Positions 37,995 to 52,681 of a stretch of 64,000 nt of DNA are shown here, piece by piece. This stretch comes from Escherichia coli. GTDB lineage: Bacteria; Pseudomonadota; Gammaproteobacteria; Enterobacterales; Enterobacteriaceae. The first letter of the stretch is position 1, and every line of letters begins with the position of its first letter. Location: the NCBI RefSeq assembly GCF_022846255.1, contig NZ_AP025682.1; one strand, 5' to 3'. The notes under the pieces are model-generated. The model worked only from the letters and a program-made list of their open reading frames with translations. It was not told the origin of the DNA and made no database searches. The translations under genes and the position numbers were made by a program.

Positions 37995-38945
37995 ATGCGT
38001 GTGTTACTGGCTCCGATGGAGGGTGTACTTGACTCTCTGGTGCGGGAATTACTGACCGAAGTTAACGACTACGATCTGTGCATCACCGAGTTTGTCCGCG
38101 TGGTGGATCAACTGCTGCCAGTAAAAGTCTTTCATCGCATTTGCCCTGAGCTACAAAATGCCAGCCGGACACCATCCGGTACGCTGGTGCGCGTGCAGTT
38201 GTTAGGGCAGTTCCCACAGTGGCTGGCAGAGAATGCCGCCCGTGCGGTGGAGTTAGGTTCCTGGGGCGTGGATCTTAACTGCGGCTGCCCGTCGAAAACG
38301 GTTAACGGTAGCGGTGGTGGGGCAACGTTACTGAAAGATCCTGAACTCATCTACCAGGGTGCAAAAGCGATGCGCGAAGCTGTACCGGCGCATTTGCCTG
38401 TCAGCGTAAAAGTGCGTCTGGGCTGGGACAGCGGTGAGAAGAAATTTGAAATCGCCGATGCGGTGAAACAGGCTGGCGCTACGGAGCTGGTAGTACATGG
38501 GCGGACAAAAGAGCAGGGTTACCGCGCGGAACATATTGACTGGCAGGCGATTGGCGAGATTCGCCAGCGGCTTAATATTCCGGTGATTGCCAACGGTGAA
38601 ATCTGGGACAGGCAGAGTGCGCAACAATGCATGGCGATCAGCGGCTGCGACGCAGTGATGATTGGTCGCGGGGCGCTCAATATTCCCAACCTGAGCCGGG
38701 TAGTAAAATATAACGAACCGCGAATGCCGTGGCCGGAGGTGGTTGCTTTGCTGCAAAAATATACCCGTCTGGAAAAGCAGGGCGATACCGGGTTATATCA
38801 CGTTGCGCGGATTAAACAGTGGTTGAGTTATTTGCGTAAAGAATACGATGAAGCAACGGAATTATTTCAGCATGTTCGGGTGTTGAATAATTCCCCTGAT
38901 ATTGCAAGGGCTATTCAGGCAATTGATATCGATAAGCTGCGATAA
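37995..38945 (+). CDS. dusC: tRNA-dihydrouridine synthase C
   Basis: Track ORF 37929..38945 trimmed to [13 protein letters not shown]...; Dus TIM-barrel with catalytic Cys region (LNCGCP). Confidence 0.88.
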
Positions 38946-39002
38946 TAGTGGAATCGCAGTTTATCAGAGACAATGAATCGCTTATTCAGCTTCATCATCT
39001 TG

Positions 39003-39240
39003 TTGCGCTCCTTTCATGAGCTAAGCCACATATTGCCACTGGCGCAAGGAGCGCGCAGGGGGAGGACAATCGCCTCCTCCCCCTGCACCCCCGGGCTCTG
39101 GCGAACAAAATCGCCGCTGCGCGGTACCTTCAGCTTATCCCCTTCGTCTACCGGGTCGGGCGCGAGGTAACGTCCTTGTAAGACGCGCCCTCAGCCCACA
39201 TCCATGTGGGCTGCCCCGGCCTTCGGGGAACGCTTCAGCG
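39003..39240. other. GC-rich intergenic element with four successive hairpins (unclassified repeat or structured RNA)
   Basis: GCGCTCCTT…AAGGAGCGC; GGGGGAGGacaatcgcCTCCTCCCC; GCCCACATccATGTGGGC; CCCCGgccttCGGGG. No convincing ORF. Confidence 0.4.
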
Positions 39241-39332
39241 ATTTTGACGCCACCAACACCGGAGCTGTTTGCAAATCAAGTACACAAAATATCTAGTTCC
39301 TGACCTGACAACTTATATGCCATATCTGATTT

Positions 39333-39416
39333 TTAAAATATCATCTTAAATACGCCAGTCACCACCAGTAGCCCAATCAGGAAAATAATCAATACAGCCC
39401 AGAGTATAATTTTCAT
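39333..39416 (-). CDS. yohP: 27-aa single-TM small membrane protein
   Basis: ATG…TAA ORF translating to MKIILWAVLIIFLIGLLVVTGVFKMIF; below the ORF-track size cutoff. Confidence 0.7.
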   Translation of the reverse strand: MKIILWAVLIIFLIGLLVVTGVFKMIF

Positions 39417-39639
39417 TGGCGTTCCTTTATTTGTGAGTGCTGAATAAGTATAGGAAAAAACGAAGCCCTTTGCCGTTATCCATAAACGATTAAGATAAAT
39501 CGGAAGATATCATTCACTTAGTGTATATTTTTCTGGATATGTCGTTTTATTGCTACTGATGTATTGCCACGCGAAACTAAAAAATATATCGCAACACACG
39601 GTAATCTCCGCGCACCTTTTCTTACCTGATTATTCCCCC

Positions 39640-41076
39640 ATGAATCGTGATTCCTTTTATCCCGCCATCGCCTGTTTTCCGCTGTTACTGATGCTGGCCG
39701 GGTGTGCGCCTATGCATGAAACCCGCCAGGCGTTAAGCCAGCAAACGCCCGCTGCACAAGTTGACACCGCATTACCCACGGCGCTGAAAAATGGTTGGCC
39801 AGACAGCCAATGGTGGCTGGAGTATCACGATAATCAACTCACTTCCTTAATTAACAATGCACTACAGAACGCACCGGATATGCAGGTGGCTGAACAGCGC
39901 ATTCAGCTAGCTGAAGCCCAGGCGAAGGCAATTGCTACTCAGGATGGTCCGCAGATCGACTTTTCTGCGGATATGGAGCGGCAAAAAATGTCGGCAGAAG
40001 GCTTAATGGGGCCGTTTGCTCTGAACGATCCGGCCGCAGGTACGACCGGTCCGTGGTACACCAACGGAACTTTTGGCTTAACGGCGGGCTGGCATCTCGA
40101 TATCTGGGGAAAGAATCGGGCGGAGGTTACTGCCCGCCTGGGTACGGTTAAAGCACGGGCGGCGGAACGCGAGCAAACCCGCCAATTGCTGGCTGGCAGC
40201 GTAGCCCGCCTGTACTGGGAGTGGCAAACCCAGGCGGCGTTAAACACGGTCTTGCAGCAAATAGAAAAAGAGCAGAACACCATTATCGCGACCGATCGCC
40301 AGCTATATCAGAACGGGATTACTTCTTCAGTTGAAGGTGTGGAAACCGATATTAATGCCAGCAAAACCCGGCAGCAGCTCAACGATGTCGCGGGGAAAAT
40401 GAAAATTATTGAGGCACGGTTAAGCGCACTTACAAATAACCAGACAAAGTCATTGAAGCTTAAACCGGTCGCGTTGCCGAAAGTGGCAAGCCAGCTTCCT
40501 GATGAACTGGGGTACTCCTTACTGGCCCGGCGGGCAGATTTGCAGGCGGCGCACTGGTACGTTGAGTCATCGCTAAGCACCATTGATGCGGCAAAAGCGG
40601 CATTTTATCCTGACATCAACCTGATGGCCTTCCTGCAACAGGATGCGTTGCACTTAAGCGATCTGTTCCGTCATTCCGCGCAGCAAATGGGCGTTACGGC
40701 AGGCCTGACGCTACCCATTTTCGATAGTGGTCGTCTTAACGCCAATCTCGATATCGCAAAAGCCGAAAGCAACTTGTCTATCGCCAGCTACAACAAAGCG
40801 GTGGTTGAAGCGGTGAATGACGTGGCGCGGGCAGCCAGTCAGGTTCAGACACTTGCGGAGAAAAACCAGCATCAGGCGCAAATTGAGCGCGATGCCTTGC
40901 GTGTGGTAGGTCTTGCGCAGGCGCGCTTTAACGCGGGCATCATTGCTGGTTCCCGCGTCAGCGAAGCCAGAATCCCGGCGCTGCGTGAGCGGGCCAATGG
41001 CCTGTTATTGCAAGGGCAGTGGCTGGATGCTTCCATTCAACTCACTGGTGCGTTGGGCGGGGGTTACAAACGCTGA
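39640..41076 (+). CDS. mdtQ: Outer-membrane efflux lipoprotein (OMF/TolC-like, NodT family); appears intact here
   Basis: 478 aa from ATG 39640; lipobox LLMLAGC; no internal stop or frameshift in this sequence. Confidence 0.8.
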   Translation: MNRDSFYPAIACFPLLLMLAGCAPMHETRQALSQQTPAAQVDTALPTALKNGWPDSQWWLEYHDNQLTSLINNALQNAPDMQVAEQRIQLAEAQAKAIATQDGPQIDFSADMERQKMSAEGLMGPFALNDPAAGTTGPWYTNGTFGLTAGWHLDIWGKNRAEVTARLGTVKARAAEREQTRQLLAGSVARLYWEWQTQAALNTVLQQIEKEQNTIIATDRQLYQNGITSSVEGVETDINASKTRQQLNDVAGKMKIIEARLSALTNNQTKSLKLKPVALPKVASQLPDELGYSLLARRADLQAAHWYVESSLSTIDAAKAAFYPDINLMAFLQQDALHLSDLFRHSAQQMGVTAGLTLPIFDSGRLNANLDIAKAESNLSIASYNKAVVEAVNDVARAASQVQTLAEKNQHQAQIERDALRVVGLAQARFNAGIIAGSRVSEARIPALRERANGLLLQGQWLDASIQLTGALGGGYKR

Positions 41077-51861: not shown

Positions 51862-52593
51862 ATGAAGATGTTGCGCGATCCGCTCTTCTGGCTCATTGCT
51901 CTGTTTGTGGTGCTGATTTTCTGGCTACCCTATAGCCAGCCGCTGTTCGGTGCTTTATTTCCGCAGCTGCCACGGCCCGTTTATCAGCAAGAAAGTTTTG
52001 CAGCTCTGGCGCTGGCTCATTTCTGGCTGGTGGGGATCTCAAGTTTGTTTGCTGTAATTATCGGCGTTGGTGCCGGAGTTGCCGTCACTCGCCCGTGGGG
52101 AGCAGCGTTTCGCCCGATGGTAGAAACCATTGCCGCCGTTGGGCAGACTTTTCCACCTGTAGCGGTGCTGGCGATTGCCGTTCCGGTGATGGGGTTTGGT
52201 CTGCAACCGGCGATTATCGCGCTGATCCTTTACGGCGTGCTACCCATCTTGCAGGCGACACTTGCCGGGCTGGGAGCGATTGATGCCAGCGTGACAGAAG
52301 TTGCGAAAGGTATGGGAATGAGTCGTGGTCAGCGACTGCGTAAGGTCGAGCTACCGCTGGCGGCTCCGGTGATTCTGGCGGGCGTGCGAACTTCGGTGAT
52401 TATCAACATTGGTACGGCGACGATCGCCTCAACGGTAGGGGCCAGCACGCTGGGTACGCCGATCATCATCGGGCTTAGCGGATTTAATACCGCGTATGTG
52501 ATCCAGGGGGCGTTACTGGTGGCACTGGCGGCGATCATCGCAGACCGCCTGTTTGAAAGGCTGGTGCAGGCGTTCAGCCAGCACGCAAAATAA
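51862..52593 (+). CDS. yehW: Osmoprotectant ABC transporter permease
   Basis: 243-aa polytopic ORF. Confidence 0.9.
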
Positions 52594-52681
52594 AGGTATA
52601 ACCTGCGAGCATGACGCCACCAATTCCGCCTAACGCCATAAACAGGAACAGGGCGATGACCCCAATTTTAGCTATGCGCAT
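52574..52681 (-). CDS. yohO: 35-aa single-TM small membrane protein
   Basis: ATG…TGA ORF translating to [35 protein letters not shown]; 3' end overlaps the yehW 3' end by about 20 nt on the opposite strand. Confidence 0.65.

Follow-up and report, generated by a model that had tools for sequence, protein, structure and literature searches.

Studies of the Escherichia coli small protein YohP have found it with inner-membrane vesicles, resistant to carbonate extraction and oriented mostly N-out/C-in; its SDS-resistant dimers require Gly15 (PMC7549839). SRP binds YohP post-translationally, and insertion proceeds via SecYEG or YidC. The yohP mRNA reaches the membrane independently of translation, and insertion becomes SRP-independent when SRP is inhibited (PMC10066597). 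When produced, YohP mildly depolarizes the membrane, a sublethal effect that leads to 'metabolic silencing'; PspA/PspC and (p)ppGpp are induced, the nucleoid condenses and protein synthesis falls (PMC12719787; PMC12542507). Deletion of yohP raises sensitivity to ciprofloxacin and H2O2 and has only minor effects on the proteome and on growth (PMC12719787). The same authors caution that most of the effects they describe came from premature, plasmid-driven expression in exponential phase, so that native effects may differ, and they did not reproduce the earlier-reported induction of YohP by SDS/EDTA and H2O2 (PMC12719787). In Salmonella, where the yohP transcript was first catalogued as an sRNA (STnc1330), YohP-3xFlag reaches high levels in stationary phase, and a ΔrpoS strain has almost none (PMC5437024). 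The peptide has been detected both with and without a tag (PMC12719787, PMC7549839, PMC5437024).

Several other small proteins resemble YohP without any sequence relationship to it. YncL, YkgR, AcrZ, MgrB and MgtS all have fewer than 50 residues and one transmembrane helix, and are induced by stress or in stationary phase. YncL shares with YohP the depolarization and nucleoid condensation, and YkgR, like YohP, cross-links to SRP. AcrZ, MgrB and MgtS act through a defined partner protein, whereas none is known for YohP.

We analysed a stretch of 64,000 nucleotides from an E. coli chromosome (contig NZ_AP025682.1 of assembly GCF_022846255.1; hereafter the window), in which a first-pass annotation had proposed, from the letters of the DNA, a 27-residue hydrophobic protein gene on the minus strand at 39333–39416 and had named it yohP. 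From its sequence this open reading frame (ORF) is yohP, a gene that is already annotated in E. coli and whose product, a small inner-membrane protein, has already been studied experimentally. The features of the locus, with the basis of each assignment, are as follows.

37995–38945, plus strand: dusC, tRNA dihydrouridine(16) synthase, convergent with yohP (annotation from NZ_CP028112.1; ORF list)
38985–39256, no strand assigned: TRIP1c, also called RRS-dusC ('Replication Risk Sequence'), between the convergent dusC and yohP, 3' of yohP, whose 3' flank it makes up or borders
39073–39092, minus strand: G-quadruplex-type (G4) motif GGGGGTGCAGGGGGAGGAGG, differing from the K-12 motif at two positions (definition from PMC10592627)
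39333–39416, minus strand: yohP coding sequence (sequence, RefSeq annotation, NCBIfam and Pfam matches above cut-off, orthologues, dN/dS, hydrophobicity rank 1 of 260)
39423–39427, minus strand: Shine–Dalgarno sequence AAGGA, 6 nt before the yohP ATG (sequence)
39447–39454, minus strand: probable sigma-S-type extended -10 element, CCTATACT then TA (sequence and conservation)
39640–41076, plus strand: mdtQ, outer-membrane efflux protein, divergent from yohP (ORF list and annotation)

Many complete E. coli chromosomes, among them those of O26, O103 and O111 strains, match the 801 bp spanning the ORF at 100% identity, and we transferred the gene annotation from one of these, the O103 strain NZ_CP028112.1. 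RefSeq calls exactly this ORF yohP, 'small membrane protein YohP' (WP_000691708.1), and places it between dusC and mdtQ. The curated K-12 record lists yohP as b4679 (YP_002791249.1), and a K-12-like strain carries the same WP_000691708.1. Profile searches agreed: the NCBIfam equivalog NF011345 scored 67.3 bits against a cut-off of 58, with residues 1–27 falling on profile positions 1–27, and Pfam PF25659, 'YohP', scored 50.6 bits against a cut-off of 27. The gene name given in the first-pass annotation is thus confirmed by WP_000691708.1, NF011345 and PF25659. That annotation had also described the gene as missed by the ORF track. The track does omit yohP, because the gene is shorter than the usual ORF-length threshold; RefSeq, however, already annotates it. 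A second short hydrophobic ORF in the window, at 52574–52681 on the minus strand, encodes the 35-residue YohO (NCBIfam NF010225, 80.1 bits, cut-off 57), a small membrane protein that is likewise annotated and would likewise fall below the length threshold of such a track.

Reading of the sequence and of the ORF list showed that the minus-strand ORF at 39333–39416 begins with ATG, runs for 27 codons and ends in TAA. Its translation, MKIILWAVLIIFLIGLLVVTGVFKMIF, is the hydrophobic 27-residue peptide that had been written out at first pass. Its stop-to-stop segment holds no in-frame ATG, GTG or TTG further upstream of the yohP ATG. The family traits of YohP are all present: 27 residues and one hydrophobic helix between Lys2 and Lys24, with Gly15 at mid-helix. 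The single transmembrane helix corresponds to a 21-residue uncharged stretch from Lys2 to Lys24, which contains Gly15 and Gly21. Short ORFs are plentiful by chance, with 38 of at least 20 residues overlapping the 2.2 kb around yohP. Among the 260 ATG-initiated ORFs of 20–40 residues in the 64-kb window, yohP ranked first in hydrophobicity, with a mean Kyte–Doolittle value of 2.47 against 1.88 for the runner-up; the T content of its coding DNA is 40.5%. The Shine–Dalgarno sequence has a GGA/GGAG core at the equivalent position in 20 of 20 orthologous loci. We found no solved structure of a relative.

The position of the gene is that of the family, convergent with dusC and divergent from mdtQ, and the dusC–yohP–mdtQ arrangement also occurs in Escherichia, most Citrobacter, Salmonella, one Enterobacter and Lelliottia. 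The start codons of yohP and mdtQ are separated by 223 nt. We considered whether yohP could be a leader peptide of mdtQ and rejected this, because the two genes are divergently transcribed. The initial description of the ORF as lying downstream of a GC-rich hairpin element and upstream of mdtQ is right in plus-strand coordinates only; in gene terms the element is 3' of yohP and mdtQ is divergent. In K-12 the YohP protein, its neighbours, the Shine–Dalgarno sequence and the 5' region are all the same as in the window, whereas the sequence past the stop codon is different, the TRIP1c/RRS-dusC element has the opposite orientation and mdtQ is a pseudogene. In the window mdtQ is intact, with 478 codons; in K-12 MG1655 and K-12-like strains it is frameshifted.

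Since the protein is identical to the one studied in the literature, we take its translation, localization, insertion pathway, dimerization and physiology from that work. A single-helix membrane protein, as had been predicted at first pass, is what published fractionation, carbonate extraction and protease data describe (PMC7549839), and published results likewise exist for each of the checks suggested there, namely a tagged fusion, membrane fractionation and a stress phenotype. The ORF had also been called typical of 'small regulatory membrane proteins'. The membrane part of this holds, whereas a regulatory role is not established: YohP has no known protein partner, and the data favour direct, mild depolarization (PMC12719787).

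Conservation of the gene is nearly complete within the species. Of 5,426 complete E. coli genomes, 5,421 carry yohP and its 5' region, and in 5,335 the identity is at least 99%. More distant relatives were sampled by using dusC as an anchor, which gave 80 loci from different species of Enterobacterales. Twenty of these loci had a YohP ORF no more than 3.5 kb from dusC, namely those of Escherichia, most Citrobacter, Salmonella enterica subsp. arizonae and diarizonae, Enterobacter quasihormaechei, Lelliottia, Franconibacter and two Yersinia. All 20 orthologues are exactly 27 codons long. Of the variable alignment columns, 14, 3 and 24 fell at codon positions 1, 2 and 3 (14/3/24), and dN/dS relative to E. 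coli was 0.01–0.11 for Citrobacter, Salmonella, Enterobacter and Lelliottia and 0.22 for Yersinia alsatica. The invariant residues follow the pattern MK..LW....IF..GLL..TGVFK.IF and include K2, G15, G21 and K24. Judged from these alignments, the substitutions are those expected of a peptide under selection. Salmonella YohP, also 27 residues long and convergent with dusC, differs from the E. coli protein by two substitutions (I4L and V8I).

The gene is also lost in places. No yohP was found within 3.5 kb of dusC in 59–60 of the 80 species loci, and a profile search of six-frame segments from the 60 dusC loci without a hit returned one marginal candidate only, in Yersinia similis (13.9 bits, E = 0.047). 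The type strain of E. albertii (NBRC 107761) carries a clean deletion equivalent to 39061–39474 of the window (positions 1208–1226 of its locus, L008), which has removed yohP, its promoter and most of TRIP1c. In four Citrobacter species (loci L012, L013, L016 and L022) the gap between dusC and mdtQ is about 110 nt and contains no yohP. In E. coli 720632 (NZ_CP025842.1; locus L003, 788–1485) an IS1A is inserted in yohP and leaves a 41-bp remnant, a natural knockout. Being deleted, missing or IS1-disrupted in some lineages, yohP is dispensable. Absence from close relatives, which the first-pass annotation had named as evidence against the gene, is therefore real for E. albertii and some Citrobacter, but it reads as lineage-specific loss rather than as a sign of a spurious ORF.

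To the ORF, its Shine–Dalgarno sequence, family membership, synteny, conservation and purifying selection, our analysis adds a conserved -10 motif upstream of the gene. The sequence CCTATACTTA (39454–39445, minus strand) lies about 30 nt upstream of the yohP ATG, and CCTATACTTA/CTATACT is kept in Escherichia, Citrobacter and Salmonella loci, including that of Salmonella yohP itself, while adjacent bases vary. Within it, the -10 hexamer TATACT (39452–39447) is preceded by C at position -13. Extended -10 promoters of sigma-S follow the consensus C(-13)TATACTTAA and have a weak -35; this consensus reportedly comes from the work of Weber et al. in 2005. The sequence CCTATACTTAT at 39454–39444 (minus strand) fits it, and the -35 position, with 2 of 6 matches, holds no good -35 element. 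The CTATACT element is thus probably a sigma-S-type promoter of yohP; functionally, it is for the Salmonella gene only that dependence on sigma-S has been demonstrated (PMC5437024). This proposal came from conservation and not from a sigma-70 scan: such a scan of 38900–39750 called no yohP promoter, the candidate -10 included. We infer the exact transcription start, the use of the promoter in this strain and the transcript end; transcription would begin near 39441–39439 and give a leader of about 24 nt. In the same interval (38900–39750) we found no intrinsic terminator on either strand, neither for dusC nor for yohP.

Stem-loops have been proposed in the literature as part of the membrane targeting of yohP mRNA. 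The coding RNA folded no better than shuffled sequences (minimum free energy -9.8 versus -12.3 kcal/mol, z = +1.1), and the consensus structure over 15 orthologues was worth only -2.0 kcal/mol. The proposed targeting stem-loops are without thermodynamic or evolutionary support, and for that reason U-richness, an automatic consequence of hydrophobic codons, is the more plausible targeting feature.

Taken together, we put at about 95% the probability of an explanation in which the gene is yohP, is expressed under sigma-S and encodes a single-span membrane peptide. In this scheme, sigma-S RNA polymerase would make a short, U-rich yohP mRNA from the CTATACT -10 promoter in stationary phase or under nutrient limitation, and the mRNA would comprise a leader of about 24 nt, a canonical Shine–Dalgarno sequence and an 81-nt coding region. 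The 27-residue peptide would be complete before it leaves the ribosome tunnel, and recognition by SRP/FtsY would therefore follow translation, with SecYEG or YidC acting next. When SRP is inhibited, YohP would instead be made from membrane-bound mRNA. The peptide would span the inner membrane once, mainly N-out/C-in, and dimerize through Gly15; at its high stationary-phase level it would partly dissipate the membrane potential.

A different account would make YohP a type-I-toxin-like peptide, comparable to TisB, Hok or Ldr, whose synthesis is restrained by an antisense or overlapping sRNA; the locus would then be a toxin–antitoxin module and not the gene of a small membrane protein that protects against stress. 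YohP is indeed small, single-helix, lysine-flanked and hydrophobic, cells that over-produce it grow more slowly, with a depolarized membrane and a condensed nucleoid, and the authors of the YohP work themselves liken it to TisB and magainin-2. Both are, like YohP, short helices flanked by positive charges, and both reduce the membrane potential; as a difference, YohP actually interferes with magainin-2 oligomerization (PMC12542507). A sigma-70-like site, ATGCCA-16-TATCAT at 39317–39344 on the plus strand, points antisense into yohP and towards mdtQ, and the K-12-type flank has a similar ATGACA-16-TATCAT in an alignment read by eye. However, chance alone would produce 1.8 ± 1.4 promoter-like sites, more than the single opposite-strand one seen here, the -10 of this site is the reverse of yohP codons 25–26, and the flank that holds its -35 is unrelated outside Escherichia. 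A scan of 38000–41000 detected no Rfam antitoxin or other RNA family at yohP. Type I toxin mRNAs have long, translationally locked leaders, whereas the leader of yohP would be short (about 24 nt) with an exposed Shine–Dalgarno sequence; a long, structured, inactive leader of the toxin-mRNA kind was not found at yohP, given that length and the z-score of +1.1. Unlike the type I toxins, YohP has no known or detected antitoxin RNA and is sublethal at native levels, being abundant in stationary phase without killing cells. We regard this account as very improbable.

Slightly less probable still is that the locus is mainly a non-coding or dual-function sRNA in which the ORF is secondary. The short, abundant transcript depends on sigma-S, was once classed as non-coding (STnc1330), and localizes to the membrane as a translation-independent property. 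Against this, changes in yohP are overwhelmingly synonymous, the length of the ORF is invariant and dN/dS is 0.01–0.11; there is neither a thermodynamic nor a covariation signal of conserved RNA structure, nor an Rfam family; and both tagged and untagged YohP have been detected as protein. Finally, a chance ORF without a product in an AT-rich intergenic region, as might be suspected from the abundance of short ORFs here and from the hydrophobic residues that AT- and T-rich DNA favours, is excluded by the curated profile matches, the cross-genus pattern of orthologues (14/3/24) and the published detection of YohP.

A difference between this locus and that of K-12 lies beyond the stop codon. Strong homology between the window and K-12-type chromosomes stopped at 39331, 2 nt past the stop, and the 3' flank of yohP therefore differs between E. 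coli lineages. The segment at 39257–39332 is a lineage-specific 3' flank of yohP. Beyond it lies the GC-rich element, which we identified as TRIP1c, located in K-12 at 2229122–2229394 (PMC10888264), and as RRS-dusC, one of two 'Replication Risk Sequences' (PMC10592627). What identifies it is a GC-rich repeat of about 222–273 bp just downstream of dusC with a GGGGGTGCAGGGGGCGGCGG-type G4 motif. In the window the element is 272 bp long and 61% GC (0.614), with a predicted minimum free energy of -134 kcal/mol. It is a dispersed repeat, found at a median of three places per E. coli genome, with a second copy between aqpZ and lysO (TRIP1a), to which it is 93% identical over the 272-bp core and 90.8% identical over 304 bp (38991–39294). 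A REP/BIME-type repeat was considered for the GC-rich element and rejected, the unit being 272 bp long, present about three times per genome and identified as TRIP1/RRS. A match to the Rfam family TwoAYGGAY at 39108–39247 (minus strand), from a scan of 38000–41000, was rejected as a family assignment at its sub-threshold 27.7 bits against a gathering score of 43 (E = 0.2). A hairpin within TRIP1c, CAGCCCAC-ATGGAT-GTGGGCTG, does present an AYGGAY loop, which is probably coincidental.

BLAST comparison showed that TRIP1c in the window is 88.6% identical to the K-12-type dusC copy but reversed, with both flanking genes unchanged. The G4 motif lies on the yohP-sense strand here, whereas it lies on the dusC-sense strand in K-12 MG1655. 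Li et al. had found TRIP1c in both orientations (PMC10888264). Among the 5,426 complete E. coli genomes, 1,999 (37%) have the window-type arrangement and 3,318 have the K-12 type; the aqpZ–lysO copy is in the K-12 orientation in 4,027 genomes, including an O111:H8 strain. In the 80 species loci, an element beside dusC occurs only in Escherichia; E. whittamii, Escherichia sp. E1V33 and the remnant in E. albertii all have it in the window-type orientation, which suggests that this arrangement is the more ancient of the two. Neither of the two Salmonella loci inspected has a TRIP1/RRS element beside dusC, and the 3' flank of yohP is unrelated there.

The inversion may bear on both transcription and replication. 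As a speculation, the structured TRIP1c may serve as a bidirectional 3'-end element for dusC and yohP. With respect to replication, the G4-bearing strand of both K-12 RRS elements is the lagging-strand template (PMC10592627). The plus strand of the window has a net positive GC skew, which implies that the G4-bearing minus strand is the leading-strand template; with the direction of replication deduced from this skew and from synteny with K-12, the G4 strand of the inverted element is probably the leading-strand template here, and the placement on the lagging-strand template that was stated for both K-12 RRS would not hold. A G4 placed on the leading-strand template by engineering in K-12 abolished the formation of post-replication gaps. 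Strain EAW1841 of the Cox laboratory is one that has RRS-dusC inverted. We tentatively suggest, as an outcome that we consider unlikely on present evidence, that in lineages with the inverted TRIP1c the yohP transcript enters the G-rich rather than the C-rich strand of this very stable structure, which may alter the mRNA end, its stability and the level of YohP between lineages, and that, with the G4 on the leading-strand template, only the lysO RRS is in the gap-forming orientation. In the RRS papers, both the sequence and the position of the elements are said to be highly conserved. The TRIP1 paper makes no mention of RRS (PMC10888264), the RRS paper cites TRIP1 only as a name from a 1999 repeat screen (PMC10592627), and the orientation dimorphism and the function of the RRS are not connected in these two papers (PMC10888264, PMC10592627).

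The gene described here is therefore already known, annotated and experimentally characterized, and its recognition in the window is correct and ordinary. The case illustrates that a genuine gene of 27 codons can be recognized by a reader in raw sequence, and that length-thresholded ORF tracks drop real small membrane protein genes such as yohP and yohO. YohP is a current model for the insertion of very short membrane proteins, through post-translational SRP binding and mRNA targeting, and also for small peptides that drive cells into a low-energy, stress-tolerant state, a picture that the window leaves unchanged. The sole point that goes past the cited literature is the lineage dependence of the yohP 3' flank, which varies because the adjacent TRIP1c/RRS-dusC element is inverted. 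If the proposed consequences of this inversion were true, the lineages would provide a natural test of the 'topological relief valve' model of the RRS and of the claim that the RRS arrangement is highly conserved.
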